43,120 nt of DNA from a bacterium (GCA_046725105.1 JBKOXV010000168.1:1-43120); one strand, 5' to 3'; positions 2-27,487 are shown, counted from the stretch's first letter. Numbers and translations are program-made. The notes: generated by a model not told the origin, from the sequence alone.

Positions 2-2287
2 CTACACGGTGATGACGAGGAGGAGCGCGCCGATGGCGGCGGCGCCGAAGAGCAGCGCTCCGTACTGCTGGACCTTGCCCGACTGCACCGGCCGGAGCGC
101 CTGTCCGCTCTCCTCGGCGGCCAGGCCGCTGCCGTTCACGATGCCGTCGACGACCTTCTGGTCGATGTTGTCGTACACCCAAGTGCCCGTGCGCCGAGTG
201 CTCACGCCGACGCCGTTCACCACGCCGTCGATCAGCGCCTGGTTGATGTAGTAGGCGCCCTTGGCGATCGGGCCCTTGATGCCGGCCACGATGACGTTCT
301 CGTAGAGGGCATCCAGGTAGTACTTGTTCCACAGGAAGGCGTAGCCGCCGCCGGCGAGCTTGCTACGGCGGGTGAGGCCGGCGGCGAAGGCCCGCTCGTA
401 GACAGCGACGCACACGAGGTAACCCACGATGGCCCCGGCGAGGGCGAAGACGATCGAGAGCAGGGCGTCGCTCCAGTGGAACGGGGCGTGGACGAGCTCG
501 GGGAAGGTGCCGCCGAGCGGGCTGGCCTCGACCCACTCGGTGAACTTCTCGGTGGTGGCGATGGTGGTGGCGTTGTTGAGCAGGCCGGCCGTCAGTGACA
601 ACACGGCGAGGATGATGAGCGGCACCGTGATCAGCGGCGGCGACTCGTGCGGCTCGGCGTGGTGCTCCCCGTGGGCGCCGTGCCCGTGCACCTCGGCGGC
701 GGCGTGAGCGGTGACGAACTCGTCGGGGTTGTCCTCGGCCACGACGAAGGTGCCGCCGGCCTCCTCGGCGATGGGCTCGGCGGCGTGGGCCAGGGCCACG
801 GCCGGGACGCGCTCGGGGATGGGCTCGTGCTCATGGGCCCCGAGCTCGCCGCCGCGGTACTCGCCGAGGAAGGTGAGGTACACGCAGCGGGCCATGTAGG
901 CGGCGGTGAGGAAGGCGCCGACCAGGCCGATCACCATGAAGGCCGTGTAGCCGTTGTTGCCGGCGTTGGCGATGATCTCGTCCTTCGAGAAGAAGCCGGC
1001 ACCGATCGGGATGCCCATGAGCGCGATGGTGCCGATGATGAAGGTGACGAACGTGATCGGCATCTTGCGCCACAGCCCGCCCATGTCCTTCTTCATGTCG
1101 AAGGAGTGGTGCGCCCCGGAGTGGCTGACCGAGCCCGCCCCCAGGAAGAGCAGGGCCTTGAAGAAGGCGTGGGTGAAGATGTGAAAGACGGCCGGCAGCC
1201 AGGCGCCCACGCCGAGACCCATCACCATGTAGCCGAGCTGGCTCACCGTCGAGTAGGCGAGCACCTTCTTGATGTCGATCTGCACGAAGGCCAGCACGGC
1301 GGCGATGACGATGGTGATGCCGCCGATCACCGCCATGGGGTTCACCGGGCCGTCGGCGATCTTGAAGCCCTCGTAGAACACGGGATACAGCCGAGCGCCG
1401 AGGTAGACGCCGGCGACGACCATCGTGGCGGCGTGGATGAGCGCCGACACGGGGGTGGGGCCGGCCATGGCGTCGGGGAGCCACGTGTGCAGCGGGAACT
1501 GGCCCGACTTGCCGATGATGCCGATGAACAGGGCCATGGCGCCCCAGAAGATGACGCTGCGCGACCAGTCGCCCGACAACGCCCATTCGTTGATCTGGTC
1601 GATGCTGAACGAGCCGGCGCCCCAGAAGGTGATGATGATGCCGATCAGGAGGCCGACGTCGCCGACTCGTGTGGTGAAGAACGCCTTCATGGCGGCGTCG
1701 GAGTTCTTCTTGTCCTCCCACCAATGCCCGATCAGCATGAACGAGCAGAGGCCCATGATCTCCCAGCCGAGCAGGAGCTGGAGCGTGTTCTCGGCGATGA
1801 CCAGATCGAGCATGCCCGCCGTGAACAGCGAGAGACCGGCGAAGTAGTAGGTGAAACGCCGATCGCCGCGCACGTACTCGAGCGAATAGATCTGCACGAG
1901 GCTCGAGATGATGGTGACGACGATCAGCAGGGCGACAGCGAGGCCGTCGATGTGCTCACCGATCCCGAACCGCACGCCGCCGCTCTGCCACCACGTCCAC
2001 GAGTGGATGACCGGCTCCACGAAGGGCCGGGTGTGCTCCTCCTGTCCGGGCAGGATCGACCGGCCGAGGGCGGCCAGGGCGCTCTCGCCGCCGGCGTGGT
2101 CGTCAACCCGCTGGATCCACTGTACCGCGGTGCCGATCGCCAGCACGAGCGCCGCCAGAACGGCGGCGATGCCGATGTAGCTGCCGCCGTTCGTGTACCG
2201 GCCGGTCCGCTTCCCGAACAGGAGAATGAGGAAGAAGGCCGCCGCCGGCAGGATCGGGATGATCCAGGCGTGGTCGAGGAACCACAT
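2..2287 (-). CDS. nuoL: NADH-quinone oxidoreductase subunit L (cluster 1, EFG-less nuo-like operon), 761 aa
   Basis: Antiporter-like motifs WEIMGLCSFMLIGHWW and GKSGQFPLHTWLPDAMAGPTPVSALIHAATMV. Long C-terminal lateral-helix-like region plus a terminal TM. TAG stop at 2..4. Follows nuoK. Confidence 0.93.
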   Translation of the reverse strand: MWFLDHAWIIPILPAAAFFLILLFGKRTGRYTNGGSYIGIAAVLAALVLAIGTAVQWIQRVDDHAGGESALAALGRSILPGQEEHTRPFVEPVIHSWTWWQSGGVRFGIGEHIDGLAVALLIVVTIISSLVQIYSLEYVRGDRRFTYYFAGLSLFTAGMLDLVIAENTLQLLLGWEIMGLCSFMLIGHWWEDKKNSDAAMKAFFTTRVGDVGLLIGIIITFWGAGSFSIDQINEWALSGDWSRSVIFWGAMALFIGIIGKSGQFPLHTWLPDAMAGPTPVSALIHAATMVVAGVYLGARLYPVFYEGFKIADGPVNPMAVIGGITIVIAAVLAFVQIDIKKVLAYSTVSQLGYMVMGLGVGAWLPAVFHIFTHAFFKALLFLGAGSVSHSGAHHSFDMKKDMGGLWRKMPITFVTFIIGTIALMGIPIGAGFFSKDEIIANAGNNGYTAFMVIGLVGAFLTAAYMARCVYLTFLGEYRGGELGAHEHEPIPERVPAVALAHAAEPIAEEAGGTFVVAEDNPDEFVTAHAAAEVHGHGAHGEHHAEPHESPPLITVPLIILAVLSLTAGLLNNATTIATTEKFTEWVEASPLGGTFPELVHAPFHWSDALLSIVFALAGAIVGYLVCVAVYERAFAAGLTRRSKLAGGGYAFLWNKYYLDALYENVIVAGIKGPIAKGAYYINQALIDGVVNGVGVSTRRTGTWVYDNIDQKVVDGIVNGSGLAAEESGQALRPVQSGKVQQYGALLFGAAAIGALLLVITV

Positions 2288-2294
2288 GCCGGCG

Positions 2295-2594
2295 TCAGCC
2301 CTTCATCTCGGACAGCTCGTCGAGGGCGATGCTGCGCCGGTTGCGGTAGATGAGCAGGACGATGGCGAGGCCGACGCCGACCTCGGCGGCGGCGATGGCG
2401 ATGATGTACAGGGCGAAGACCTGCCCGTTGACGTTGCCGTTGCGCAGGGCGAACGCCAGCAAGTTGATGTTCACCGAGTTGAGGATCAGCTCGATCGACA
2501 TCAGTACGAGCACGCCGTTGCGCCGGGCGATGACGCCGTACACGCCGATGGCGAACAGCGCCGCGCCAAGGAGGAGGAACTCGTTGACCAGCAT
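2295..2594 (-). CDS. nuoK: NADH-quinone oxidoreductase subunit K (cluster 1), 99 aa
   Basis: Small 3-TM protein with SIELILNSVNINLLAF and AAAEVGVGLAIV, typical of NuoK/ND4L. Lies between nuoJ and nuoL. Confidence 0.92.
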   Translation of the reverse strand: MLVNEFLLLGAALFAIGVYGVIARRNGVLVLMSIELILNSVNINLLAFALRNGNVNGQVFALYIIAIAAAEVGVGLAIVLLIYRNRRSIALDELSEMKG

Positions 2595-2600
2595 CGATGC

Positions 2601-3116
2601 TCAGTCTTTTCGGGCGAGGACGATGGCGCCGATGACGGCGGCGAGCAGGACGAACGACAGGGCCCAGAACGGCAGCAGGTACGGCCCGAAGATGGAGTCG
2701 CTGACCTGCTCGGTGGAGCTGATGAGGGGATCGGCCGGCAGCTGCTCGTCGGAGAAGGCGTCGATGAGCACGTAGCCGAGGACGCCGGCGATGGCGAGGG
2801 CCACCACGACGGCGACGCTCCGTTGGGACGTGTTCAACCCGCCCTCCCGGCCGATGCGCGCCCGGGTGAGCATCGTGCCGAACAGGAAGAGGACGGTGAC
2901 GGCGCCGATGTAGACGAGGATCTGGGTGACGGCGACGAACTCGGCCGCCAGCAGCAGGTAGAGGGCGGCGGCTCCGCCGAGCACCACGACGAGGTACAGG
3001 GCGGCGTGGACGACGTTGTTGGTGGTGACGACGCGCAGGGCGCCGAGGATCATGCCGGCGGCGATGATGCCGAAGGCGATGTGCTGGGCGACGTTCTGCT
3101 GGGCGGCCAGGAGCAT
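2601..3116 (-). CDS. nuoJ: NADH-quinone oxidoreductase subunit J (cluster 1), 171 aa
   Basis: Multi-TM ND6-like protein (LLLAAEFVAVTQILVYIGAVTVLFLF). Abuts the nuoI stop and precedes nuoK. Confidence 0.88.
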   Translation of the reverse strand: MLLAAQQNVAQHIAFGIIAAGMILGALRVVTTNNVVHAALYLVVVLGGAAALYLLLAAEFVAVTQILVYIGAVTVLFLFGTMLTRARIGREGGLNTSQRSVAVVVALAIAGVLGYVLIDAFSDEQLPADPLISSTEQVSDSIFGPYLLPFWALSFVLLAAVIGAIVLARKD

Positions 3117-3623
3117 CTACTTCTTCTTCTTGTCGGCGCCGGCTTCGAGCTCGGGGGCTTCCGGGACGGTCTCCATCCACTCGCCGAGCTTGTCCTTGTC
3201 GTGGAGGAGATCGGCGATGCGCGGCTCGGAGTACTCGTACTCCGGGCTCCAGAACAGGGCGTCGAACGGGCACACTTCGACGCAGATCCCGCAGTACATG
3301 CACAGGGCGTAATCGATGTCGAAGCGGTCGAGGGCGCTGACGCTGCGGGGCTTGCCGCCGGGCCGCCGCGGCGGGGCTTTCTCCTTGTGACCCTCGATGT
3401 AGATGCACCAGTCCGGACACGAGCGGGCGCACAGCATGCAGACCGTGCAGTTGCCCTCGTGGAGGGCGATGACGCCGCGAGCCCGGATCGGCGGCGCTTC
3501 CTTCTCGTGCGGGTACTGGATGGTGGCGGGACCGCCGCCCAGCCGCCGAGGCGTGACGGTGTGGGTGAGCTCCTTGAAGGTGACCCCGAGGCCCTTCAGC
3601 ACACCCGGAACCAGCTTGGACAT
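3117..3623 (-). CDS. nuoI: NADH-quinone oxidoreductase subunit I (cluster 1), 2x[4Fe-4S], 168 aa
   Basis: Two CxxCxxCxxxCP motifs ([24 protein letters not shown]). Its start shares 1 nt with the nuoH stop (TGATG). Confidence 0.93.
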
Positions 3624-4651
3624 CAGAACATCACCTTGAAGATGGCTGTCACCATGATGTTGATCAGCGCGATCGGGATGAGGAACTTCCAGGCGAACCG
3701 CTGGAGCTGGTCCTCACGGAAGCGGGGATAGGTGAAGCGCACGAAGAAGATCAGGCCCATGAGGATGAGCATCTTCGTGAACAGGACGAGCGGGCCGATG
3801 ACGTTCATCCAGTCGGCGTCGAGCGATACGCCCGGCAGCGCCCATCCGCCGAGGAAGAGGGTGGCGGCCAGGGCGGCGAAGGCGCCCGCCGACGCGAACT
3901 CGGCGATGAAGAACAGCAGGAAGCGAAAGCCGCTGTATTCCGTCATGTAGCCGGCGACGAGCTCGGACTCGGCGATGGGCATGTCGAAGGGCGTCTGGGT
4001 GAGCTCGGCCTGGGCGGCGATGAGGAAGATCACCAGCGCCACGAACTGGGTGAAGACGTACGGAAAGCCGATGCCGCCCCAGCCGAGGATCTCGCCGTCG
4101 TGCTGGGCGGCCACGATCCCCTGCATGTTCAGGGTGCCGGCCTGGATCACGACGCCCATCACGGCGAGCGACAGCGGCAGCTCGTAGGCGATCAGCTGGC
4201 CGGCGGCCCGCAGCCCGCCCATGAGCGAGTACTTGTTCGCCGACGACCAGCCCGCCATGAGGATGCCGAGCACCGACACCGACGACACGGCGAGGGCGAA
4301 GAAGATGCCGGTCGAGTAGTCGGCGAAGACGGCGAGCGGGCCGAACGGGACGGCGAGATAGATGAGGAACACGGTGAGGAAGACGACGAAGACGGCGGCC
4401 TTGAAGATGAACCGGTCGGCGTTGTCGGGGTGCAGGTCCTCCTTCTGGAGGAACTTCCCCACCTCGGCGAACAGCTGCAGCGAGCCGTACGGGCCAGCTT
4501 CCATCGGCCCCAACCGGGACTGCATGAAGCTCACCATCTTGAACAGGTAGAGGTACACGGCGGTGCCGGCCGGGATCAGCACGGCGACGGCCACCCCCAG
4601 CGACCGGAAGACGGTCTGGCCCCAGTACGGGATGACGACGGCCGACGTCAT
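3623..4651 (-). CDS. nuoH: NADH-quinone oxidoreductase subunit H (cluster 1), 342 aa
   Basis: ND1-type motifs [21 protein letters not shown] and [22 protein letters not shown]. The track ORF runs to 4747; I trimmed it to the ATG at 4651, which has GAGG 6 nt upstream. The extra 32 codons look like GC-rich read-through. Confidence 0.9.
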
Positions 4652-4783
4652 GAGGGCCTCACGGCGGCACTGCGGGTCCTGTCCGGCGCGGTCCGCAGCG
4701 GCCGGCCGACAAACCGTCGGCCGCCGCTTTGCGGCCGCCCCGGCCACCCGCAGCGCCTCCGCCCATAGGTCTCGTCGATAGGA

Positions 4784-4800
4784 GTCGGCCTTCGGCCGAC
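4784..4800 (-). other. Perfect 7-bp stem / 3-nt loop hairpin 8 nt downstream of the nuoD (cluster 1) stop
   Basis: Plus strand GTCGGCC-TTC-GGCCGAC; transcript GUCGGCC-GAA-GGCCGAC. No U-tract follows. A related unit, CGGCCGAC-AAACC-GTCGGCCG, lies at 4703..4723. Confidence 0.5.
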
Positions 4801-4808
4801 ACGCATCT

Positions 4809-5981
4809 TCATCGGTCGATGTCCCCGAGGATGAAGTACAGGCTGGCGAGGATGGTGATGACGTCGGGGACGTACACGCCGCGGAGAACCCACGGCGTGA
4901 CCGAGATGTTGTTGAACGACGCCGAGCGGATCTTGACTCGGAACGGGCCCGTGTCGCCTTTCGAGATGACGTAGTACCCCATCTCGCCGAGCGGGTTCTC
5001 GGTGGAGACCCAGGCCTCGCCCTCGGGCACCTTGATGATGCGCGGCACCTTGGCCATGATCGGGCCGGCCGGCAGGCTGTCGAGCAGCTGCTCGACGATG
5101 CCCGTGGCCTCCCGGACCTCCTGCAGCCGCACCCAGTAGCGGGCGAAGCTGTCGCCGTCGGGGTGGGTCCAGACCTTCCAGTCCACCTTGTCCCACGCCA
5201 GCGGCAGCTGCTGGTCGCGCCGGAGGTCCCAGTCCACGCCGCTGCCCCGCAAGTTGGCGCCGGACAGGCCGTATTGGAGAGCGATCTCGCGCGGGATCAC
5301 CCCGATGCCCCGGGTGCGGGCCTCGAAGATCTCGTTGCCGACGAGGAGGTTCTCCATCTCGTCGCAAAAGGCGCGCACCGTCTTCATCACCGACTTCGTC
5401 TCGTCGATGAACCCCTTGGGCAGGTCGTCCTTCAGGCCACCGATGCGGTCGTAATTGGGATGGAAGCGCCCACCCGTGACCGACTCGATCAGGTTGAGCA
5501 CGTACTCCCGGTCGCGGAAGGCGTAGAAGACGGGCGTGACGGCGCCGAGCTGCACGCCCATGTCGCCGAGGAACAGCGTCACGTTGGCGATGCGGGACAG
5601 CTCGAACAGGACGGTGCGGATGTGCTGGGCCCGCGGCGGTGCCTCGATCTCCATGAGCTTCTCGGCGGCGAGAATGAACGGCACCTCGTTGGCGAAGCTG
5701 CCCAGCCAGTCGATCCGGTTGATGAGGGTGGTGACCTGGGGGAACGTCCGGACCTCGGTGAGCTTCTCGTAGCCGCGGTGCATGTAGCCGCACGAGGGCT
5801 CGGCCCAGACGACCTGCTCGCCGTCGAGGCGGCAGATGATCCGCAGCGTGCCGTGGGTGGCCGGGTGCTGCGGCCCGATGTTGAGGGTCATGCCCTCGGT
5901 CTCGAGCTCGACGTTCAAGCGGGCGTCGGCGGCCTGGCCGGCGATGTAGGCGAGCTGCTGGCGATCGGTCAACATCGTCAT
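4809..5981 (-). CDS. nuoD: NADH-quinone oxidoreductase subunit D (cluster 1), 390 aa
   Basis: NIGPQHPATHGTLR, HRGYEKL and the C-terminal ILGDIDR motif. The ATG at 5981 overlaps the nuoC stop (ATGA). The track ORF to 6509 is an upstream read-through. Confidence 0.93.
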   Translation of the reverse strand: MTMLTDRQQLAYIAGQAADARLNVELETEGMTLNIGPQHPATHGTLRIICRLDGEQVVWAEPSCGYMHRGYEKLTEVRTFPQVTTLINRIDWLGSFANEVPFILAAEKLMEIEAPPRAQHIRTVLFELSRIANVTLFLGDMGVQLGAVTPVFYAFRDREYVLNLIESVTGGRFHPNYDRIGGLKDDLPKGFIDETKSVMKTVRAFCDEMENLLVGNEIFEARTRGIGVIPREIALQYGLSGANLRGSGVDWDLRRDQQLPLAWDKVDWKVWTHPDGDSFARYWVRLQEVREATGIVEQLLDSLPAGPIMAKVPRIIKVPEGEAWVSTENPLGEMGYYVISKGDTGPFRVKIRSASFNNISVTPWVLRGVYVPDVITILASLYFILGDIDR

Positions 5982-6649
5982 GACGACTCGCCCTCCTCCG
6001 CCTCCTCGTCGTCGGCCGGCATGGGCTCGACGTCGACGATGCCCGGCCACGGCTTCACCATGCGGGCCAGCAGCGGGAAGTCCTTCCGCAAGGGATGGCC
6101 CTCGAAGCCGGTCGGCAGATACATGTTGCGCAGGTCGGGATGGCCGGCGAAGACGATGCCGAACATCTCCCACGTCTCCCGCTCGTGCCAGTTGGCCCCG
6201 GCGTACACGCTCGACCACGACTCGATCGTCATCGTGTCGTCGGGGACGTCGACCTTCATCGTGAGGCCGACGTGGCGGCGGGGATCGACGACCCGGGCGA
6301 ACACCTGGAACCGCGTGTCGCCGCCCGCCACGCCCTGCTTCGTCTCGGTGGAACGTTCGGGGGGCGGCTCGGTGGGATCGTCCTCCCCTTTGCCGTACGG
6401 CGACGGCATCCAGTCGATGGCTGACAGGAAGCAGAAGTACTCGCAGCCGAGCACGTCCCGCACCGCCACGCCGGCAGGGCGCCACGAGTCGGTGGCGATG
6501 CGCACCCACACGTCGTCGCCGGGCCGCAGCTCGTGGCCCACGACGGCGTCGCCCAGCTCGCTGGTGAGCCGTTCGATCAGACCCTGACGCAGCTCGTCGA
6601 CGGCGGCGTCCCCCGTGCCGGTGTCAGCCGTTGACGACAATGGGCTCAC
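5978..6649 (-). CDS. nuoC: NADH-quinone oxidoreductase subunit C (cluster 1), 223 aa
   Basis: 30-kDa subunit motif [38 protein letters not shown]. Acidic C-terminal tail. Confidence 0.9.
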
Positions 6650-7127
6650 CGCGCCACTTTGCGCTCATGTCTTCCCGCTTGATCCGCTCCTGGAGCAGCA
6701 CGATGCCCTCCAGCAGCGCCTCCGGCCGCGGCGGGCAGCCGGGTACGTACACGTCGACCGGAATGATCTGATCCACGCCCTTGGTGACCGAGTAGCTGTC
6801 CCAGTAGGGGCCGCCGCAGTTGGCGCACGAGCCCATCGAGATCACGTACTTGGGATCCGGCATCTGTTCGTACAGGCGCTTCACGGCGGGTGCCATCTTG
6901 TCGGTGACCGTGCCCGAGATCACGACGAGGTCGGCCTGGCGGGGGCTGGCCGGCAGCGGGATCACGCCGAGCCGCATCACGTCGTACCGGGGCGACCCGA
7001 AGGCCGCACCCATCTCGATGGCGCAGCACGCCAGCCCCCACTGGTACACCCACACCGAGTACGAACGCCCCATGTTCAACAGCGCGGTGAGGGGCTTGGG
7101 CATGCGGCCCTTCTCGATCAGACCCAC
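6624..7127 (-). CDS. nuoB: NADH-quinone oxidoreductase subunit B (cluster 1), about 167 aa
   Basis: [35 protein letters not shown] and [11 protein letters not shown] (N2 cluster ligands). Start chosen at GTG 7127, with AAGGGAG about 7 nt upstream and an overlap with the nuoA end. ATG 7103 is an alternative. The track ORF to 7361 is read-through. Confidence 0.85.
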
Positions 7128-7486
7128 CGCAGCACTCCCTTGCGCCACGCGTACACGAGGCCCAGGACGAGCACGAACACGAACACACCCATCTCCACCA
7201 GACCGAAGCCGCCGTACTCCTCGAGGCGGACGGCCCACGGGAAGATGAACACCACCTCGACGTCGAACACCACGAAGAGCAGGGCGAACAGGTAGTACCG
7301 GATCTGGCTCTGCGACCAGCCTTCCCCGACCGGATCGACACCGCTCTCGTAGGCGATCCACTTCTCCGGCGAGCCCGTCCGGCGGGGCCGCACCAGGCTG
7401 CTGAGACCCAGGAAGCCCGATGCCAGGGCCACGGCGACGGCGATGAAGACGGCCGCCGTCAGCCAGCTGCGGAGGAACTGCGACAT
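7118..7486 (-). CDS. nuoA: NADH-quinone oxidoreductase subunit A (cluster 1), about 122 aa
   Basis: ND3-type motifs YESGVDP and [14 protein letters not shown] at 7486; the track uses TTG at 7492. First gene of the operon. No SD is visible, so the transcript may be leaderless. Confidence 0.88.
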
Positions 7487-7494
7487 CGCCAAGG

Positions 7495-7608: not shown

Positions 7609-8313
7609 GTGGCTCCGCTGATCGCCGTTCCGGGCCGCCTCCGCGACGACATCCGCGGGGCGCGCGGCGGTGCCGTGCTGGCCGGGCGCCGCTATCTCGA
7701 CGCCGTCGCCCGAGCCGGCGGCGTGCCCGCCCTCCTCGACCCGTCGCACCCGATCGACTTCGCCGCCGTGCTGGTCCGGTTCGACGGGTTGCTCCTCCTC
7801 GGCGGCGGGGACCTGGACCCGGCCCGCTACGGCGTGTCCGAGCCGCATCCCGAGGTGGGCGGCATCGACGAACACCACGACGCCTTCGAACTGGCGGCGC
7901 TGGAGTCGGCCCTGACGCTCGATCTCCCGATTCTCGCCGTGTGCCGAGGCTGCCAGGTCCTCAACGTCGCGCTCGGAGGGACACTCCGCCAGCACGTCAA
8001 CGACCACCGCGGCCTGCTGCATCCGGTCGCCGTGGTACCCGGGAGCCGGACGGAGGCGGCCATGGGGACGGCCACGCCGACCGGCTGGTCGCGCCATCAC
8101 CAGGTGATCGACCGGGTCGGCGACGGGCTCGTCGTCACCGCTCGCGACGCTGGCGGTCTCGTCGAAGGCGTCGAGCGGCCCGACGGGTGGGTCGTCGGCG
8201 TGCAGTGGCACCCCGAGGATTCGGCCGCCGACGACCCCGCCCAGCAGGGTCTGTTCGACGCCTTCGTCGCCGCCTGCCGAGCTCGCAGTACGGTGACCGC
8301 ACCGGGGGGATAG
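7609..8313 (+). CDS. Class I glutamine amidotransferase-like / peptidase C26 (gamma-glutamyl-GABA hydrolase PuuD family), 234 aa
   Basis: Nucleophile elbow LAVCRGCQVLNVALGGTL and the His-Glu motif VQWHPE. GTG start. Confidence 0.8.
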   Translation: MAPLIAVPGRLRDDIRGARGGAVLAGRRYLDAVARAGGVPALLDPSHPIDFAAVLVRFDGLLLLGGGDLDPARYGVSEPHPEVGGIDEHHDAFELAALESALTLDLPILAVCRGCQVLNVALGGTLRQHVNDHRGLLHPVAVVPGSRTEAAMGTATPTGWSRHHQVIDRVGDGLVVTARDAGGLVEGVERPDGWVVGVQWHPEDSAADDPAQQGLFDAFVAACRARSTVTAPGG

Positions 8314-8450: not shown

Positions 8451-9980
8451 CTAGAGGGTGAGCGTGTTGGCGGCGTCGCGCGCGAAGTCGACGATCGGGC
8501 CCGGGAGGAAGCCGAAGACCACGGTGAAGCCCAGTGCCGCGGCCAGCCCCACGCCGGCGGTGAACGGCACGCGCACCGGCGGCAGGGCGGCGGCGTCCTC
8601 GGGCGGGTCCGACAGGTACATGCTCACGATGATCCGGAGATAGAGAAAGGCGGCGATGACGGCGCTCAGCATGGCCAGGACGGCGATCACATAACTCTTG
8701 GCGTCGACGGCGGCGGAGATCACGTTGAACTTGGCCACGAACCCGGCTGTCAGCGGCACGCCGGCCTGGGCCAGCAGCAGCACCGTGAACGTGAACGCCA
8801 GCACCGGCCGGGTGCGGGACAGCCCGCGGTAGTCGTCGAGGTTGTGGTCGCCGTCGCCGGTGCGGCCGACCAGGGTGACCACACCGAAGCTGCCCAACAC
8901 GATGACGGCGTAGGCGAGCAGGTAGAAGAGGGCGCTCGAGTAGCCCAGCAGCGACACGGACTGCCCGGTGGGCTCGTTGGCGAGGGCCTCCATCCCGACG
9001 AGGATGAACCCGACGTGGGCGATCGACGAGTAGGCCAGCATGCGCTTGACGTTCGTCTGCACTATGGCCATCACCGACCCCACGAAGAGCGAGAGCACGG
9101 CCAGGGCGTAGATGACCGGGCGCCAGTCGTCGCGGTACTGGAAGAAGCCGATCGACACGACCCGCAGCAGGGCCGCGAAGGCGGCCGCCTTGGACGCCGA
9201 CGCGAGGAAGCCACTGACGGGCGTCGGCGCCCCCTGGTACACGTCCGGCGTCCACATGTGGAACGGAGCGGCGGCGATCTTGAACCCGAACCCGACGATC
9301 AGCAGCGCCAGTCCGGCGTAGAGCAGGCCCTTGTCGCTCTGCGGCGGGGTCTGCGTGAAGAAGTTGAAGATCGTGGCGAGGCGCGTCGAGCCGGTGGCGC
9401 CGTATTCGAGGGCGATCCCGTAGAGGAAGAACGCCGACGAAAAGCTGCCCAGGACGAAGTACTTCATCCCCGACTCCTGCGAGTCGAGCCGCTTGAGGTG
9501 GCTGGCGGCGAGCACATAGAGCGCCAGCGACAGCGTCTCGAGGCCGAGGAACAGCACGATGAGATCGCTCGACCACGCCATCACCACGCCGCCCAGGGCA
9601 GAGACGAGGATCAGCGCATACGTCTCGGCGCCGTCGAGCCCTTCCCGGCGGAGGTAGTCGTCGAGGAAGAGGGCGCTCAGCAGGATCGACGCCACGATGA
9701 CGACGGTGATGAACAGACCGGGTCCGTCGAGCACGATGGCCCCGCCGAGCAGCTGTTGCGGCCCGTCGTCCTGCACCTGGTGCCAGAGCACCAGCGTGAG
9801 CACGAGGGCGGCAACGGAGACTGCGGCCGTGAACCCGGCGTAGGTGCCCTTCGGGAGATGGCGGTCGAACAGGGCCCCGGTCATCATGATGACGAGCGCC
9901 CCGCCCGTGATCACGATGAGTGGCGTCAGGGCGAACCAGTCGACGCTGGGGCCGGTGAAGGTGGAGACCTGGGCGAACAC
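8451..9980 (-). CDS. nuoN: NADH-quinone oxidoreductase subunit N (cluster 2), 509 aa
   Basis: Antiporter-like protein with KIAAAPFHMWTPDVYQGAPTPVSGFLASASKAAAF. GTG at 9980 has GGAGA upstream and lies 2 nt after the nuoM stop. The track ORF to 10871 is read-through. Confidence 0.9.
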   Translation of the reverse strand: MFAQVSTFTGPSVDWFALTPLIVITGGALVIMMTGALFDRHLPKGTYAGFTAAVSVAALVLTLVLWHQVQDDGPQQLLGGAIVLDGPGLFITVVIVASILLSALFLDDYLRREGLDGAETYALILVSALGGVVMAWSSDLIVLFLGLETLSLALYVLAASHLKRLDSQESGMKYFVLGSFSSAFFLYGIALEYGATGSTRLATIFNFFTQTPPQSDKGLLYAGLALLIVGFGFKIAAAPFHMWTPDVYQGAPTPVSGFLASASKAAAFAALLRVVSIGFFQYRDDWRPVIYALAVLSLFVGSVMAIVQTNVKRMLAYSSIAHVGFILVGMEALANEPTGQSVSLLGYSSALFYLLAYAVIVLGSFGVVTLVGRTGDGDHNLDDYRGLSRTRPVLAFTFTVLLLAQAGVPLTAGFVAKFNVISAAVDAKSYVIAVLAMLSAVIAAFLYLRIIVSMYLSDPPEDAAALPPVRVPFTAGVGLAAALGFTVVFGFLPGPIVDFARDAANTLTL

Positions 9981-9982
9981 CG

Positions 9983-11518
9983 TCAGTCTCCGCTGGCTTC
10001 GCCGCCGACGGTGGGCTGGCGGTAGTCGGAGTGCGTCTCGACGTGGCTGATGAGGCGCTTCACGCTCGGTTCGACCCGCTCGAGGAGCGGCTTGGGGTAG
10101 ATGCCGAGGAAGAAGATCAGCCCCAGGAGCGGCAGCATGACCAGGCCTTCCTTGAGGCTGAGCTCGGAGAAGTGGTGGTTGGGATCGTCTGGCGCACCGT
10201 GGAAGACCCGCTGGTAGGCCCAGAGCAGATAGAGGGCGGCGAGGATGACGCCCGTGGCGGCCACGACCACCCACCACCGGGCAGTGAGGAACGAGCCGAC
10301 CAGCACCAGGAACTCGCCCACGAACCCGTTGAGGCCGGGCAGGCCGATCGACGAGAGCATCACGATGGTGAACACGGCGGCAAAGACCGGCGCGACCCGC
10401 TGCAGGCCCTTCAGCTGGCTGATCTCTCGGGTGTGGCGGCGCTCGTAGATCCAGCCGACGAGCAGGAAGAGAGCGCCGGTGGAGACTCCGTGGTTCACCA
10501 TCTGCAGCAGCCCGCCCGAGACGCTCTGGGTGGTGAGGGCGAAGGTGCCGAGCACGATGAAGCCGAGGTGGGCGACCGACGAGTAGGCCACCAGGCGTTT
10601 CAAATCGTGCTGCATCGTGGCGCAGATGGCGCCGTAGATGATGCCGATCACTCCGAGGGTGATGAACAACGGCGCCCACCAGTGGGCGGCGTCGGGGAAC
10701 AGGTACAGCCCGTAGCGGAGGAATCCGTACGTGCCGAGCTTCAGCATGACACCGGCCAGGATCACCGAGCCGGCCGTGGGTGCGTTGGTGTGCGCATCGG
10801 GCAGCCACGTGTGCAGCGGGAACAGCGGCACCTTGACCGCGAAGGCGATGGCGAAGGCGAGGAACAACCACCGCGTGGTGCTGGCCGCGATCGCCTGGTC
10901 GGAGGCGATGACGGTGACGTCGAAGGTGAGGATGCCGGTCTCGTTGCGGTACAGGAAGACCGTCGCGAGCAGGCCCACCAGCATGAAGGCCGAGCCCGTC
11001 ATCGTGAACAGGAAGAACTTCACGGCGGCGTAGACCCGCTCACCGTGACCCCAGCCGCCGATGAGGAAGTACATCGGCACCAGCACGATCTCGAAGAAGA
11101 TGAAGAAGAGGAACAGGTCGAGGGCGAGGAACGTGCCGAGGACGCCGGCCTCGAGCAGCAGCATCCAGGCCGTGTAGGCCTTGGCGTCGTGGCTGACGTC
11201 GGCGTCGCCCCCCCAGAAGGCCAGCGGGAACAACACGCCGGTGAGCACCACGAGGAACAAGGAGATCCCGTCCACCCCGAGGTACCACGAGATGTCCCAC
11301 GCCTTGATCCACGGGTGCCGCGACAGGAACTGGAAGCCGTCGGCCCCCTTGTCGAAGTCGATGAGCAGGTAGATGGTGAGCGCCGCCGTGGCGAGCGAGA
11401 AGAGGATGCCGAGCAGCTTCACCAGGCGCACCTGGCGCCTCGACGTGAGCGCAACCACCAGGGCGCCGGCTGCCGGGACGAGGATGATCGACGTCAGCAG
11501 CGGGAACGAGCTGTCCAT
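9983..11518 (-). CDS. nuoM: NADH-quinone oxidoreductase subunit M (cluster 2), 511 aa
   Basis: AVKVPLFPLHTWLPDAHTNAPTAGSVILAGVMLKLGTYG. The ATG at 11518 shares 1 nt with the nuoL stop (TGATG). Confidence 0.93.
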   Translation of the reverse strand: MDSSFPLLTSIILVPAAGALVVALTSRRQVRLVKLLGILFSLATAALTIYLLIDFDKGADGFQFLSRHPWIKAWDISWYLGVDGISLFLVVLTGVLFPLAFWGGDADVSHDAKAYTAWMLLLEAGVLGTFLALDLFLFFIFFEIVLVPMYFLIGGWGHGERVYAAVKFFLFTMTGSAFMLVGLLATVFLYRNETGILTFDVTVIASDQAIAASTTRWLFLAFAIAFAVKVPLFPLHTWLPDAHTNAPTAGSVILAGVMLKLGTYGFLRYGLYLFPDAAHWWAPLFITLGVIGIIYGAICATMQHDLKRLVAYSSVAHLGFIVLGTFALTTQSVSGGLLQMVNHGVSTGALFLLVGWIYERRHTREISQLKGLQRVAPVFAAVFTIVMLSSIGLPGLNGFVGEFLVLVGSFLTARWWVVVAATGVILAALYLLWAYQRVFHGAPDDPNHHFSELSLKEGLVMLPLLGLIFFLGIYPKPLLERVEPSVKRLISHVETHSDYRQPTVGGEASGD

Positions 11519-13506
11519 CAGATGCCCCTGCTCACGAACCAGGCGAGCAGGGCCACGGCCCCTATGCCGATGCCGAGGGCGTAGTTGCGGACGTAGCCCG
11601 ACTGCAGGTGCCGCAGGGTACGGCCGCTGAGACGCGACAGCTTGCCCACGCCGTTGACGGCGCCGTCGACGACGTTGTGGTCGAACCACGCCACGTCTTC
11701 GAACGACTCGTAGCCCGGCCCCGCCACGAAGGCCGAGACGGCGCCGTCGTAGTACCACGCGTGGGCGAGGAAGGCGGGCTCGAACGCCTTCAGCCGATGC
11801 CGGCCGTACACGAGCCAGGCGACGACGATGCCGCCGATGCCGATGACGGCGGACGCGATGGCGAACGCCCACTGCTCCGCTCCCGAGAGCGACAAGACGT
11901 GCTCGCTCTCGTGGAAGACCGGTTCGAGCCAGCGGCCGAGGAACTCCGTCTGCTCAGAGAACGGCAGGTTCAGCAGCCCGCCGAAGACGCAGCCGAACGA
12001 CAGGACGATGAGCGGCACCGTCATCAACCACACCGACTCGTGCGGTGGGTGGGCGTCGTGGTGCTCCGCCGTCGGCTCCAACGTGTTGACGGCGGCGCCG
12101 ACGGCCAGCGGGACGGGTTCGACGAGGGGCTCGGTGCCGCCCTCCGGGCCGACGACGTTGGTGAGGTCGGGCCGGGCTTCGTCCCACCGGGCCTTGCCGA
12201 AGAAGACGAGGAAGACCTCGCGGCCCATGTAGTACGCGGTGAGAAGGGCGGCGACCTCGCCCACGACCCACAATGCCGGGCTCTTGTCCCATGCGTTGAC
12301 GAGAATCTCGTCCTTGGACCAGAAGCCGGCGAACGGCGGGACGCCGGCGATGGCCAGCCAGGCGATGATGAAGGTGATCGACGTGATCGGCATCACCTTG
12401 CGGAGGGCGCCCATGTGGCGCATGTCCTGGTCCTCGTGGGGCATGCCGTGGATCACCGAGCCGGCGCCCAGGAACAGGCTGGCCTTGAAGAAGGCGTGCG
12501 TGATCATGTGGAAGACGGCCGCCACATAGGCGCCCGATCCGACCGCCAGGAACATGTACCCGAGCTGGCTGACCGTCGAGTAGGCGAGCACCTTCTTGAT
12601 GTCGTTCTGGGCCACGGCACACGTCGCGGCGAAGAACGCGGTGAACACACCGACGATGGCGATGACGGTGCCCACGTCGGGCACTTCGGCCAGCAGCGGG
12701 CTGATCCGGCACATCAGGTAGACGCCGGCCGTGACCATGGTGGCGGCATGGATCAGCGCCGACACGGGCGTGGGGCCTTCCATGGCGTCGGGCAACCAGA
12801 GGTACAGCGGAAACTGGGCCGACTTGCCGACGGCACCGAGGAACAGCAGCAGGCAGATGGCGGTGATCGTGGTCGTGGCCAGGCTGTCGGCCTGGCCGAG
12901 CAGCACGTCGTAGTTGAGCGAGCCCACCGCCTGGAACACGAGGAACATGGCGATCATGAAGCCCCAGTCACCGACCCGGTTGGTGACGAAGGCCTTCTTG
13001 CCGGCCGACGGAGGCCGCACCCGCGTGAACCAGAACGAGACCAGGAAGTAGGAGCAGAGGCCGACGCCCTCCCAGCCGAGGAACGTCACCAACAGGTTGC
13101 TGCCCAGCACGAGCATGAGCATCGAGAAGACGAACAGGTTCAGGTACAGGAAGAACTTCGAGAAGTCACGGTCGCCGTGCATGTAGCCGATGGCGTACAG
13201 GTGGATCAGCGCGCTGATGCCCGTGACGAAGAGCGCCATCGTGATCGACAGGGGGTCGACCAGGAACCCGACGTCGACGTGGAGGTTGCCGACGGGCACC
13301 CAGGCGAAGAGCGTCTTCACCAGCGAACGCTCGTCGGCCGGCTTCGAGAGCATGTCGATCCATATGCCGACGGTCACGAAGAACGCGGCCGACGTCACGA
13401 GGGTGGCGAACCACCCGGCGGCCGGCTCACCGAGGCGCCGGCCGAAGAAGAACAGCACCACGAATCCGAACGCCGGCAGGGCAGGAACGAGCCAGACGAT
13501 GTCCAT
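11518..13506 (-). CDS. nuoL: NADH-quinone oxidoreductase subunit L (cluster 2), 662 aa
   Basis: WEGVGLCSYFLVSFW and GKSAQFPLYLWLPDAMEGPTPVSALIHAATMVTAGVY. C-terminal lateral-helix region. Confidence 0.94.
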   Translation of the reverse strand: MDIVWLVPALPAFGFVVLFFFGRRLGEPAAGWFATLVTSAAFFVTVGIWIDMLSKPADERSLVKTLFAWVPVGNLHVDVGFLVDPLSITMALFVTGISALIHLYAIGYMHGDRDFSKFFLYLNLFVFSMLMLVLGSNLLVTFLGWEGVGLCSYFLVSFWFTRVRPPSAGKKAFVTNRVGDWGFMIAMFLVFQAVGSLNYDVLLGQADSLATTTITAICLLLFLGAVGKSAQFPLYLWLPDAMEGPTPVSALIHAATMVTAGVYLMCRISPLLAEVPDVGTVIAIVGVFTAFFAATCAVAQNDIKKVLAYSTVSQLGYMFLAVGSGAYVAAVFHMITHAFFKASLFLGAGSVIHGMPHEDQDMRHMGALRKVMPITSITFIIAWLAIAGVPPFAGFWSKDEILVNAWDKSPALWVVGEVAALLTAYYMGREVFLVFFGKARWDEARPDLTNVVGPEGGTEPLVEPVPLAVGAAVNTLEPTAEHHDAHPPHESVWLMTVPLIVLSFGCVFGGLLNLPFSEQTEFLGRWLEPVFHESEHVLSLSGAEQWAFAIASAVIGIGGIVVAWLVYGRHRLKAFEPAFLAHAWYYDGAVSAFVAGPGYESFEDVAWFDHNVVDGAVNGVGKLSRLSGRTLRHLQSGYVRNYALGIGIGAVALLAWFVSRGI

Positions 13507-13513
13507 CGGCTCT

Positions 13514-13831
13514 TTATCCCTTCCGCATCGTGATGTCGTCGGCGGTGGCGCCGGGCTTGCGGCGGAGCAGGGCGACGACGATCCCGAGGCCCACCACGAC
13601 CTCGGCCGCCGCCACGACGAGCACGAAGAACACCGCCGTCTGACCGGCGGGGTCGTCGAGGGCGTGGGCGAAGGCGACGAAGCTGAGGTTCACGGCGTTG
13701 AGCATCAGCTCGATGCACATGACCATCACCAGCGGGTTGCGGCGCACGAGCACGCCGACCCCGCCGATCGTGAACAGGACCGCCGCCAGCAGCAGGTACC
13801 AGGTCGGCGTGGGCGCCACGGCGACGATCAC
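13514..13831 (-). CDS. nuoK: NADH-quinone oxidoreductase subunit K (cluster 2), 105 aa
   Basis: CIELMLNAVNLSFVAFA and AAAEVVVGLGIV. GTG start at 13831; GTG 13819 is an alternative. Confidence 0.9.
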   Translation of the reverse strand: MIVAVAPTPTWYLLLAAVLFTIGGVGVLVRRNPLVMVMCIELMLNAVNLSFVAFAHALDDPAGQTAVFFVLVVAAAEVVVGLGIVVALLRRKPGATADDITMRKG

Positions 13832-13913
13832 CGGCCGCCCCCCAGGCCGAAGCGGGCAGTCGTCGTTCGGCTATCTCGAACGTCGGCTGACAGCCTGCGG
13901 AAGACGTTGCTGA

Positions 13914-14483
13914 TCACCGGCGGATCTCTTCCCGCGGCGCCACGTCGTCGGACGGCCGCCGGCGCGGGCGGGGCCGGCGGGCCAGCAGCACGGTGGCGAT
14001 GACGGCGATCACCAGGAGGAGCGATGTGAGCTCGAAGGCGAACACGTAGTCGGAGAACAGCGACTTGGCCAGCACGTTGATGTCCGGTTCGCCGGTGGCG
14101 AGGGCGCCGCTCACCGAGTGCGCCCCGGTGATGCGCCGGCCGCCGGCGGCGAAGACGGTGATGACGATGAGGCCGATGGCGGCCACGCCGACGGCGGCGG
14201 CGATCGGGCGCTGGCCCTTCAAGCTGTCCACCTCGAGGTTCTCGACCTTGTCCACGCCGAGCAGCATGATCACGAACAGGAGCAGCACGACTATGGCGCC
14301 GGCGTAGACGATCACCTGCACGGCGGCCAGGAAGTTGGCGTCCTGGGCGATGAACAGCACGGCGATGCCGAACAGCGTGAGCACCAGGCTGAGCGCGCAG
14401 TGGACCGGGTTGGGGCGCAGGACGACCCCGAGTGCCCCGCCGATCACCATCACGGCGCCCACGACGAAGACGACGGTCTCCAT
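13914..14483 (-). CDS. nuoJ: NADH-quinone oxidoreductase subunit J (cluster 2), 189 aa
   Basis: ND6-like multi-TM protein (FLAAVQVIVYAGAIVVLLLFVIMLLG). Its start shares 1 nt with the nuoI stop. Confidence 0.88.
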   Translation of the reverse strand: METVVFVVGAVMVIGGALGVVLRPNPVHCALSLVLTLFGIAVLFIAQDANFLAAVQVIVYAGAIVVLLLFVIMLLGVDKVENLEVDSLKGQRPIAAAVGVAAIGLIVITVFAAGGRRITGAHSVSGALATGEPDINVLAKSLFSDYVFAFELTSLLLVIAVIATVLLARRPRPRRRPSDDVAPREEIRR

Positions 14484-15121
14484 CAGCCGGCCGTCTGACC
14501 CTTCTCGGGCGGGCGTACGCCGTAGCCGAGCTCGCCCGACCAGGCGATCATGCCTTCGAAGTCGGCGTCACCCGAGGGTGCCGTGGCCCGCACCCAGGCG
14601 GAGGTGTGGAGATCGTCGCCTTCGCGCCAGTCTTCCCACGGCAGCTGCTTCGGGCGGCCGTCGTCGCCGACGACCAGCTCGGCCTTGGTGTAGATGGCGT
14701 CGCGGCGGTTGGTGAAGGAGAACTCGAAGAGCTTCGACTCGGTGATGGCCTCGGTGGGGCACGCCTCCACGCACATGTCGCAGTGGATGCACCGCAGGTA
14801 GTTGATCTCGTAGACGAACCCATAGCGTTCGCCCGGCGACACCGGGTCGTCGGGCGGGTTGTCGGCGCCCCGAACGTAGATGCACTCGGCCGGGCAGATG
14901 CCGGCGCACAGCTCGCACCCGATGCACTTCTCCATCCCGTCCTCGTACCGGTTGAGGACGTGCCGGCCGTGGAGGCGCTCCGGCTTGGGGATCTTCTGGT
15001 CGTGGCGGCTGTTGCCGTCCGGGCCCTTCTCGAGCCCGCCGGAGTACTCGGTGGTGACGCGCTTGCCGCCGAAGAGGTGGATCTGCCTGACAGTGACGAG
15101 GAAGCCCTGGAGGTAGCCCAT
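14483..15121 (-). CDS. nuoI: NADH-quinone oxidoreductase subunit I (cluster 2), 212 aa
   Basis: [12 protein letters not shown] and [12 protein letters not shown]. The ATG at 15121 shares 1 nt with the nuoH stop. The track ORF to 15412 is read-through. Confidence 0.93.
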
Positions 15122-16329
15122 CAGTAGGGGGAGCCTTCCAGCTCGCGGGTGCGGGCACTGGCCCGCAACGCCACCGTGAACACGCCCCACGCCACCACGG
15201 CGACGGCGAGGGCGATGGCAACTACCGCCACCCGGTTCCAGTCCTGGTCCTGGGCGACCTTGAGGGCGGTGATCAACATCAGCCACCCGAAGGCCACCGG
15301 GATGAGGAGCTTCCAGCCCAGGTCCATCAGCTGGTCGTAGCGGAACCGCGGCAGCGTGGCGCGCAGCCAGACGTAGACGAACAAGAACACCAGCAGTTTG
15401 GCGAGCAGCCACAGCGTGCCTTCGAGGGCGTTGGGGATGCCGGGGATGTCGAACAGGGGGCGGGGGCCTCCCAGGAAGAGGGTGATGATGATCGTCGACA
15501 TCACCACGACGGCCAGGAACTCGGCCAGGTAGTACATGGCGAACCGCATCGACGAGTACTCCGTCTGGTACCCGCCGACGAGCTCCTGCTCGGCCTCGGT
15601 GAGGTCGAACGGTGGCCGGTTCATCTCGGCCGTGATCGCGAGGAAGAAGACGATGAAGGGCACCACGCCGGTGGCGATCAGGTTCCAGTTCCGCACCCCG
15701 TCCTGGGCGACGACGATGCCGTTGGTCGACAGCGTGCCGCAGACGACCAGGACGGTGGCGATGGACAGCCCGAGGGCGGCCTCGTAGCTCACCATTTGGG
15801 CCGACGCCCGCACCGAACCGAGCAACGGATACTTCGAACCCGACGACCAGCCGGCCAGCATGGCGCCGTAGACGGCGACGGCGCTCATGGCCAACATCAA
15901 CAGGATGCCGACGGGTGGGTCGGCCACCTGCAACAGGGTCTTCTCACCCAGGATGGAGACGACGCCGTCGTTGCCGTTGCTGAAGTCACCGCCCAACGGG
16001 ACGATGGCGAAGGTGACGAAGACCGGCACGACGGCGAGGTAGGGCGCCAGGAGGAACACCATCCGGTCGGACTGCTCGGGGTGGATGTACTCCTTGGTGA
16101 CGAGCTTGAGGCCGTCGGCGATCGTCTGCAGGATCCCCCACCGACCGGCCTTGTTCGGCCCGATGCGGTTCTGGAAGCCGGCGATGAGCTTGCGCTCGAA
16201 CCAGATCATCAGGATGACGGCGATCAGCATCACCACGAAGGCGACCACCACCTTGATGACGACGATCAGCACCTCCTTGAAGCCGACGCCGACGATGAGC
16301 AGCGGGTCGAGGGCGAGGACGTGCCTCAC
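15121..16329 (-). CDS. nuoH: NADH-quinone oxidoreductase subunit H (cluster 2), about 402 aa
   Basis: [33 protein letters not shown] and [23 protein letters not shown]. Start set at GTG 16329 (weak RBS), so the exact start is uncertain. The track ORF to 17298 overlaps nuoG and is read-through. Confidence 0.85.
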
Positions 16330-16395
16330 TGGTGCACCACCCAAGCGTGAGCATGGACTCGTTGTTCGCGCCCCTCGGGGGCACCAGTGAGCTGG

Positions 16396-16412
16396 TCGCC
16401 GCTTCGCGGCGA
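16396..16412 (-). other. Perfect 7-bp stem / 3-nt loop hairpin in the nuoG-nuoH (cluster 2) spacer
   Basis: Plus strand TCGCCGC-TTC-GCGGCGA. Same architecture (GC stem, GAA loop in the transcript) as the hairpin at 4784..4800. Confidence 0.5.
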
Positions 16413-16447
16413 ACGCTGCACGGTGATATTGCGCTCGCTTCGCTCGC

Positions 16448-20261: not shown

Positions 20262-20355
20262 AGGGCGCACCCCCCCTCGGCTTTCACGCTGCTTTGAGAA
20301 CCCGACAGGTTCTTGGACCAACGTGAAATGGGGAGGTGAGGACCCGTCGTCCCTC

Positions 20356-20946
20356 TCACCGGGCGTCCACCTTGGCTTGGGCCTCGATGCCCGTGTTCGC
20401 CCACCGGTCCGGCGCCACCTTCTGGCGGATCCGCGCCAGCACGCCGTGGTCGGGGATCTCGTCGCGGAGCTTGCCGGAACGGAGGTCGTCGATGAGTTGG
20501 TCGAAGGCGATGGGCGTGACCTTGTAGCGGTAGCGGTAGTTGACCTCGACGGCCGGCGCTTCCGTGCACGCCGCGATGCACTCGACGTCCTCGAGGGTGA
20601 AGAGCCCGTCGGGTGTGGTGCGGCCCGCCTTCACCCCGAGCCGCTCTTCGGCGTGCTCGAGGAGCTCCCACGCGCCCAGCAACTGGCACGAGATGTTCGT
20701 GCAGATGTTGACGCAGTAGCGGCCGACCGGCTCGAACTTGAACATCTCGTAGAACGAAGCCGTGCCGTAGACCTCCGCCGGGGTGGTGTCGAGGAGCTCG
20801 GCGATGTGGGCCATGGCGTCCTCGGTGACGTAGCCGTCCTGTTCCTGGGCCAGGTGCACGAGCGGGATGAGCGCCGAGCGCGGCCGCGGGAAGCGGGCCA
20901 TGATCTCCTTGGCGAGAGCGACGTTGGCGTCGGTGAGGCGGGCCAT
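20356..20946 (-). CDS. nuoE: NADH-quinone oxidoreductase subunit E (cluster 2), 196 aa
   Basis: Thioredoxin-like 2Fe-2S protein with ALIPLVHLAQEQDGYV, CTNISCQLLG and CIAACTEAP. Confidence 0.93.
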   Translation of the reverse strand: MARLTDANVALAKEIMARFPRPRSALIPLVHLAQEQDGYVTEDAMAHIAELLDTTPAEVYGTASFYEMFKFEPVGRYCVNICTNISCQLLGAWELLEHAEERLGVKAGRTTPDGLFTLEDVECIAACTEAPAVEVNYRYRYKVTPIAFDQLIDDLRSGKLRDEIPDHGVLARIRQKVAPDRWANTGIEAQAKVDAR

Positions 20947-20950
20947 CAGG

Positions 20951-22824: not shown

Positions 22825-22827
22825 GGG

Positions 22828-23397: not shown

Positions 23398-23398
23398 C

Positions 23399-26637: not shown

Positions 26638-26646
26638 CAGTAGGTC

Positions 26647-27486: not shown

Positions 27487-27487
27487 C

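Follow-up and report, generated by a model that had tools for sequence, protein, structure and literature searches.

Introduction

Complex I-like enzymes that consist of eleven subunits and lack NuoE, NuoF and NuoG (EFG-less) have been grouped as an "ancestral-type" class by Moparthi and Hagerhall (2011), and the summary of that work in PMC11238625 places Bacillus cereus, Desulfitobacterium and Dehalococcoides among its carriers. Ferredoxin has been proposed as the donor of 11-subunit enzymes, Desulfitobacterium included (PMC11238625). An 11-gene EFG-less nuo paralogue beside a 14-gene nuo operon has previously been described in Candidatus (Ca.) Actinomarinales, where reduced F420 (F420H2) was speculated to be the donor, the paralogue being up to 35% identical to Fpo of Methanosarcina mazei (PMC7771536). 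In Ca. Actinomarina, the NDUFAF7 gene lies directly behind the 11-gene set, which was called "ancestral-type" (bioRxiv 10.1101/2021.02.01.429150). NDUFAF7/MidA is an arginine methyltransferase that modifies NDUFS2, the homologue of NuoD, in the assembly of mitochondrial complex I (PMC9006661). The present study concerns a second, EFG-less nuo cluster (cluster 1) at one end of a 43,120-bp metagenomic contig (GCA_046725105.1, JBKOXV010000168.1:1-43120), the whole of which is the window analysed here, and a complete 14-gene nuo operon (cluster 2) on the same contig.

The enzyme class itself was recognised in 2000-2011, and the arrangement is already on record for sister lineages (Ca. Actinomarinales). 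What our study adds is that the arrangement and the adjoining methyltransferase gene are conserved across 80 Acidimicrobiia loci, and so beyond the marine streamlined lineage. It further adds a shared NuoD indel, a lineage-specific Lys-rich NuoI tail, a conserved extra NuoB Cys and a new soil lineage.

Results

Cluster 1 comprises nine tightly packed open reading frames (ORFs), all on the minus strand (window 2-7492), which code for NuoA-B-C-D-H-I-J-K-L with family E-values of 1e-28 to 1e-96. Families were assigned by Pfam and NCBIfam profile searches, and coding frames were set by G+C content (GC) at the codon positions (third-position GC, GC3, about 0.9). These profile matches bear out the order given in an earlier note made from the sequence alone (the original prediction), namely nuoA-B-C-D and then directly nuoH-I-J-K-L, without nuoEFG and beside a complete operon. 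Nothing lies between nuoD1 (stop 4809-4811) and nuoH1, which leaves no room there for nuoE, nuoF or nuoG.

Specifically, nuoA1 (ND3-type, 7118-7486/7492) matches Pfam Oxidored_q4 (E 1e-34) and NCBIfam NuoA PRK07756 (123.8 bits), its start being the ATG at 7486 or, alternatively, the TTG at 7492. The gene for the N2 cluster subunit, nuoB1 (6624-7103, Oxidored_q6, E 1e-30), begins with an ATG at 7103 and has the ribosome-binding site GAGAAGGG upstream. It is followed by nuoC1 (30-kDa subunit, 5978-6649, Complex1_30kDa, E 1e-30) and nuoD1, which codes for a 49-kDa subunit of the "short" type with 390 aa (4809-5981, Complex1_49kDa, E 7e-80). For nuoH1 (ND1-type, 3623-4747, NADHdh, E 2e-96), the longest ORF runs from 4747, and translation probably begins near 4651 (MTSAVV...). 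Next come nuoI1 with two [4Fe-4S] clusters, N6a and N6b (3117-3623, Pfam Fer4 families and NCBIfam NuoI), nuoJ1 (ND6-type, 2601-3116, Oxidored_q3, E 2e-36) and nuoK1 (ND4L-type, 2295-2594, Oxidored_q2, E 1e-28). The last gene, nuoL1, codes for a complete ND5-type antiporter-like protein of 761 aa (2-2287, Pfam Proton_antipo_N and Proton_antipo_M, NCBIfam NDH_I_L 565 bits). The claim that the cluster continues off-window holds for every relative, in which nuoM and nuoN come next, but it is unreadable here, as the contig stops one base past the nuoL1 stop.

Stop and start codons overlap or sit within a few bases of each other at the C/D, H/I, I/J, J/K and K/L junctions, as in an operon. A TATAGA -10-like element stands just 5' of nuoA1, inside a 116-nt divergent intergenic region; a scan for promoter and terminator consensus and an Rfam scan around cluster 1 gave no match. 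Since an opposite-strand Peptidase_C26 gene separates the two nuo clusters, cluster 1 would form its own transcription unit in the window.

The paralogous subunits of the two clusters share only 32-51% identity overall (A 34%, B 49%, C 41%, D 41%, H 37%, I 32%, K 42%, L 37%); therefore, cluster 1 is not a recent copy. The nearest solved structures of the two NuoD proteins differ as well. NuoD2 is closest to NuoD of Mycobacterium smegmatis (443 bits), as would be expected of an actinobacterial complex I passed on by vertical descent, whereas NuoD1 scores 341 bits with Thermus Nqo4, 306 bits with cyanobacterial NdhH (second best) and 248 bits with M. smegmatis NuoD. For NuoB1, mitochondrial PSST and E. 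coli NuoB are the best matches, with M. smegmatis NuoB near the bottom of the ranking. Identity and nearest structures thus agree with the original prediction that the paralogues are old, and cluster 1 does not appear as a recent duplicate of cluster 2. The smaller estimates made there were also close: NuoK1 and NuoK2, judged about 40% identical, measure 41.7%, and NuoL1, judged about 100 aa longer than NuoL2, has 761 aa against 662 aa. Both of the quoted NuoB peptides occur verbatim. NuoL1 carries extra segments relative to NuoL2, and NuoC1 has short acidic insertions relative to NuoC2.

All nine cluster-1 ORFs are intact, without inactivating mutations, and they retain the residues on which electron transfer and proton pumping would depend. 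Motif conservation was counted in 60-80 cluster-1 orthologues, depending on the subunit. In NuoB1, the tandem Cys of GLACCAIE, MGSCANCGG (the region of the third N2 ligand) and PGCPPRPE are kept in 60-63 of 63 orthologues, and the four N2 cysteines are conserved across orthologues. The extra Cys beside an N2 ligand, to which attention had been drawn (CANCGG), is present and recurs in 60/63 orthologues, with Ser in 3. Both CxxCxxCxxxCP motifs of NuoI1 are conserved in nearly every orthologue. The NuoD1 motifs GPQHPATHGTLR and GYMHRGYEK, conserved in 64-65 of 65 orthologues, include the quinone-site His and Tyr, and this region also holds the Arg equivalent to the mitochondrial NDUFAF7 methylation target. 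In the membrane arm, both membrane Glu of NuoK1 are present and conserved, as are the Glu of transmembrane helix (TM) 5, the Lys of TM7 and the Lys of TM12 in NuoL1. Identity among orthologues is as high as 96% for NuoB and 93% for NuoD and as low as 53% for NuoL, the pattern expected under purifying selection. Frameshifts or lost Fe-S ligands, which might have been widespread among the orthologues, were looked for and not seen. NuoC1 is the least conserved subunit (47-81%).

The C terminus of NuoI1 (window 3117-3160) is Lys-rich (...AGADKKKK, of a KK(G)KK type), with at least three Lys or Arg in 68/73 orthologues, and a basic loop lies between the two cluster motifs of this subunit. The Lys-rich tail is not found in NuoI2, in Actinomarinales or in other EFG-less relatives; it may serve for docking or for contact with the membrane. 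Furthermore, the conserved parts of the cluster-1 genes are covered by contigs from soil and wastewater metatranscriptomes with a likeness of 88% or more. Their depths there equal or exceed those on nuoM2/nuoN2, and they reflect cross-species mapping and not organism-specific expression. This observation is a weak indication that the cluster-1 family may be transcribed.

A scan with NuoL1, taking one genome per species, gave more than 550 matching stretches, and the best 80 loci were analysed. All 80 come from metagenome-assembled genomes of Acidimicrobiia, Acidimicrobiales or Ilumatobacteraceae, the closest NuoL being 79% identical. The host is an uncultured soil actinobacterium of the order Acidimicrobiales, with a GC of 67-74% in the window. 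The DNA of the window recurs in many soil metagenomes at low word share (at most 13%), and exact look-ups of NuoK1, NuoL1 and NuoJ1 matched no record. The order A-B-C-D-H-I-J-K-L-M-N, with one M and one N, is found in all 80 loci. No ORF in any of them has NuoE, NuoF or NuoG as its best match, nor do nuoEFG homologues lie downstream of nuoN in these relatives.

A Methyltransf_28 gene (PF02636, NDUFAF7 family) directly follows nuoN on the same strand in 56 of the 57 informative loci. A gene of this family also comes after nuoN in Ca. Actinomarinales; examples lie at L001:15546-16547, L009:15318-16496 and, in the Actinomarinales locus, L081:18385-19338. No PF02636 match occurs inside the window, which ends before the nuoN position, and no NDUFAF7-like gene follows the EFG-less clusters of loci L084, L085 and L087, whose contigs reach past the last antiporter-like nuo gene. 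Among solved structures, the Acidimicrobiia methyltransferase matches 4f3n and 1zkd (both COG1565) and Dictyostelium NDUFAF7 (5ztz). Going by this homology to NDUFAF7, the probable target of the linked methyltransferase is the conserved arginine of NuoD, which it would modify in the course of assembly. When flanking ORFs were clustered across the 80 loci by GC3-based gene calling, the other conserved flank genes were those for acetyl-CoA synthetase, Kup, DUF520, threonine dehydratase, ROK, a pyridoxal-phosphate decarboxylase, an FGGY kinase and peptidase C26. The acetyl-CoA synthetase gene comes after the methyltransferase gene in the relatives. None of these flank genes codes for a redox partner, and in no informative locus does NuoEFG or a different redox module come after nuoN.

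The NuoD1 family is isolated. Among 1.8 billion representative proteins searched, two full-length representatives come nearest, at 57% and 49% identity, and all others stay at or below 43%. Taxonomic labels drawn from cluster membership were uninformative, and five near relatives were placed by gene context. The 57% cluster, the nearest one at 50% clustering, is the Ca. Actinomarinales locus L081, with the order iron repressor, ferrochelatase, Fe ABC transporter, heliorhodopsin, nuoABCDHIJKLMN, Methyltransf_28. Four further NuoD relatives (about 43% identity) likewise lie in clusters without E, F and G, so that 5/5 contexts are EFG-less, but the identity of NuoD1 to EFG-less NuoDs from outside Acidimicrobiia (39-44%) is not above that between NuoD1 and NuoD2 (41%). 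One of these relatives, L085 (GC 71%; NuoD 43% identical by phmmer), carries pyruvate:ferredoxin oxidoreductase (PFOR) directly after nuoN (L085:18882-21227), a hint of a ferredoxin donor in that lineage. The low-GC relative L087 has an archaeal-like layout, with a NuoCD fusion, NuoJ split in two (8843-9436) and a CBS-domain gene between nuoI and nuoJ.

A 25-residue segment of NuoD2 (about 21170-21250) is missing from NuoD1 (about 4950-5000) and from every other EFG-less NuoD examined; this indel separates "short" from "long" NuoD types. Over its full length, the short NuoD1 aligns with the FpoD and PRK12322 models as well as with the large subunits of membrane-bound hydrogenase (MBH) and membrane-bound sulfane reductase (MBS). 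In NuoB, EFG-less relatives read GGPY or GGPF, whereas canonical NuoB2 reads GGMF (GGMFNNY). The GGP(Y/F) signature that the original prediction gave for 11-subunit enzymes is thus common to other EFG-less clusters. Since the relatives are EFG-less and share the 25-residue NuoD deletion, cluster 1 does not derive from a recent loss of EFG in the host operon. With contiguous A-L here (M and N being supplied by the relatives), a quinone-type Q-module and an affinity to EFG-less enzymes, cluster 1 is assigned on sequence features to the "ancestral-type" 11-subunit complex I-like class.

Several other identities were tried and rejected. The Fpo-specific NCBIfam models score far under their cut-offs (score/cut-off: FpoD 325/600, FpoL 389/1050, FpoH 238/475, FpoK 108/145, FpoI 44/180, FpoC 65/220). 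The same holds for the cyanobacterial and plastid NDH-1 models NdhH (341/583) and NdhI (60/302), and no NdhL-S/V genes occur in the flanks. The NuoE/F/G genes that stand between nuoD and nuoH in the canonical 14-subunit enzyme are absent from cluster 1 and present in cluster 2. A group 4 [NiFe] hydrogenase (Mbh/Ech/Hyf) does not fit either, as the N- and C-termini of NuoD1 have no NiFe-ligating Cys (CxxC); NuoD1 scores 145 bits with MBH and 131 bits with formate hydrogenlyase, far below the value with Thermus Nqo4. An Mrp antiporter, a recent duplication and a pseudogenisation were likewise rejected on sequence grounds.

Between the two nuo clusters lies the Peptidase_C26 gene for a class-I glutamine amidotransferase (7609-8313, plus strand, Pfam Peptidase_C26 E 1.5e-46), which is also found in this position in the relative L009. 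Cluster 2, the canonical nuoA-N operon of 14 genes by Pfam matches (8451-23872, minus strand), includes nuoE2 (2Fe-2S thioredoxin-like, 20356-20946), nuoF2 (51-kDa FMN domain, 18918 to about 20261) and nuoG2 (16448-18925), all on the minus strand and identified by Pfam. Directly upstream of it, an unusual cytochrome bc-type operon (23883-29184, minus strand) codes for a 159-aa protein of unknown function, a 137-aa 2x[4Fe-4S] ferredoxin-domain protein, a Rieske protein, a dihaem cytochrome c, a split cytochrome b (b6-like, 261 aa, and subunit-IV-like, 279 aa) and a 355-aa ORF without a family. Its layout differs from the usual actinobacterial qcrCAB. Adjoining this respiratory block, a cytochrome c gene and a gene for a geranylgeranyl-reductase-like FAD protein, possibly a menaquinone side-chain reductase, occupy 29452-31493 (plus strand). 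At 40334-43113, two adjacent genes on opposite strands code for proteins with repeated Ig-like/ASH-type domains (Pfam Cep192, HYDIN, DUF1573) that are probably secreted or exposed at the cell surface. No ferredoxin, flavodoxin, FrhB/FpoF-like or further NuoEFG-like gene is linked to cluster 1 elsewhere in the window.

Discussion

We consider it fairly likely that cluster 1 codes for an 11-subunit EFG-less proton-pumping menaquinone reductase, which would be fed by a soluble low-potential donor. Electrons would enter at the exposed NuoI cluster N6a from the separate donor, and the Q-module with N6a, N6b and N2 would pass them to menaquinone at the NuoB/D/H pocket. Protons would be pumped through NuoH/A/J/K/L/M/N, as in complex I. 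During assembly, the NDUFAF7-like enzyme would dimethylate the NuoD Arg (in HGTLR), as in mitochondria.

Within this explanation, we tentatively name a reduced ferredoxin-type carrier as the donor, a choice that could well prove wrong. Ferredoxin is favoured because the clade is ancestrally independent of EFG and one relative (L085) is linked to PFOR, and also because cyanobacterial NDH-1 uses ferredoxin and the same donor has been proposed in print for Desulfitobacterium. Cyanobacterial NDH-1 is the only EFG-less relative with a known non-F420 donor. Moreover, the basic loop and the Lys tail of NuoI1 (68/73 orthologues) could attract an acidic protein. A Lys-rich FpoI tail that docks ferredoxin in Methanosaeta is an idea of the same kind, for which a literature check found no supporting paper in the library searched. 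Several points weigh against this explanation. No donor gene (ferredoxin, flavodoxin or PFOR) is conserved beside the cluster in the 80 Acidimicrobiia loci. The Lys tail is weak evidence of docking, since it is lineage-specific and absent from Actinomarinales and other EFG-less relatives. The hosts look like aerobic heterotrophs with an NADH-dependent complex I alongside, so that a large ferredoxin pool is not obvious. In addition, the expression evidence stems from related sequences that cross-map, without specificity for the host organism.

The original prediction held that an enzyme without NuoEFG cannot use NADH directly. The absence of NuoEFG from the cluster agrees with this statement, which ignores, however, a possible sharing of the NuoEFG of the adjacent operon. 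In that case NuoB1-D1/H1-N1 would dock these subunits and form a second NADH:quinone oxidoreductase isoenzyme, which might differ in coupling, quinone preference or regulation. The layout of the window lends itself to this idea, as the distance from the nuoN2 stop (8451) to the nuoA1 start (7492) is 959 bp and a complete, same-strand operon with nuoEFG is thus only about 1 kb away. Of the 60 loci that extend as far as nuoA1, 25 carry canonical nuoM/N upstream of it on the same strand within 10 kb, and 10/53 do so within 2.5 kb; some of the gaps measure just 69-256 nt, which makes co-transcription possible. Recruitment of NuoEFG has also been considered in the literature for Syntrophobacter. 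In most loci, however, the two clusters are not adjacent, and the subunits on which NuoG would dock are only 32-49% identical to their cluster-2 counterparts. Furthermore, the members of the NuoD1 clade that were examined sit in EFG-less clusters and share the NuoD deletion, which argues that independence from EFG is ancestral. We therefore regard a shared NADH-oxidising module as unlikely.

Alternatively, cluster 1 might code for an Fpo-like F420H2:menaquinone oxidoreductase, in which a separately encoded FpoF/FrhB-like flavoprotein would feed NuoI1. F420 is common in Actinomycetota. In Methanosarcina, too, fpoF is unlinked, being encoded away from the fpo operon, and the short NuoD1 aligns end to end with the FpoD model. 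The same donor has been proposed for the Actinomarinales paralogue (PMC7771536). Nevertheless, every Fpo-specific NCBIfam model stays far under its cut-off, and neither the window nor the 10-kb flanks of the 80 loci contain an FpoF/FrhB or FpoO gene. In addition, a short NuoD is common to many EFG-less bacterial clusters without a link to F420. This explanation thus appears quite improbable. A decaying or silent duplicate, or a cation/proton antiporter module without redox chemistry, is very improbable, because the poor conservation of NuoC1 stands against intact ORFs, Fe-S ligands and quinone-site residues kept in 60-80 orthologues with NuoL identity down to 53%, an assembly-factor-like gene kept in 56/57 loci, and the detection of related transcripts.

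Acidimicrobiia are abundant in soil, freshwater and the sea, and nearly all examined members keep the 11-subunit enzyme beside a normal complex I. Therefore, the 11-subunit enzyme that we favour probably serves as a second point at which electrons enter the respiratory chain with energy conservation. Taken together, the parts of this explanation would describe a dedicated pump of aerobic Acidimicrobiia from soil and water that couples ferredoxin or another low-potential carrier to menaquinone, with the carrier on the NuoI Lys tail and the NuoD Arg methylated by the NDUFAF7 homologue. As a joint reading this is doubtful. If true, it would be the first bacterial NDUFAF7-dependent maturation of complex I beyond the alpha-proteobacterial/mitochondrial line; it would also supply the donor that this enzyme class has lacked since 2011.

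Among the known systems, the truncated second nuo set of Streptomyces, which the original prediction had named, is documented in the literature. Compared by gene content, Streptomyces nuo2 (nuoA2, B2, D2, H2-N2) is likewise an incomplete, EFG-less set alongside a complete nuoA-N operon. In contrast to cluster 1, where nuoC1 and nuoD1 stand in the operon, it also lacks nuoC and has nuoD2 encoded apart. The cyanobacterial and plastid NDH-1, a ferredoxin:plastoquinone oxidoreductase, is EFG-less as well and takes its electrons from ferredoxin at the NdhI side. NdhH presumably keeps the 25-residue segment that NuoD1 lacks; a break in the NuoD1 alignment at about residue 309 is consistent with this. 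Methanosarcina Fpo (FpoABCDHIJKLMNO and FpoF) shares eleven homologous core subunits, the lack of NuoEFG, a short type of NuoD and a proton-pumping membrane arm. It differs in that its acceptor is methanophenazine and not menaquinone; here, NuoJ is unsplit and no FpoO or FpoF is seen in the window.

The ancestral-type 11-subunit enzymes agree with cluster 1 in having subunits A-D and H-N, no N-module, and a Q-module that is complex I-like and not hydrogenase-like. In their carriers, often anaerobes, the only complex I is usually the 11-subunit one, whereas here a full 14-subunit operon stands alongside, the host is a probable aerobe and an NDUFAF7-like gene is linked, as seen in the relatives. 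The Ca. Actinomarinales locus differs in its surroundings, with heliorhodopsin and an Fe(III) ABC transporter before it and htpX and pspE behind it; in the window, the two operons are split by a peptidase C26 gene, and the relatives carry acetyl-CoA synthetase after the methyltransferase. Its NuoI is without the Lys tail, its NuoB is without the extra Cys (CSNSGG), and its GC is 33% as against about 68% in the window. Nevertheless, it belongs to the same class, Acidimicrobiia, and has the same nuoABCDHIJKLMN order, the NDUFAF7/PF02636 gene downstream, a 14-gene operon nearby and a NuoD that is 57% identical to NuoD1.

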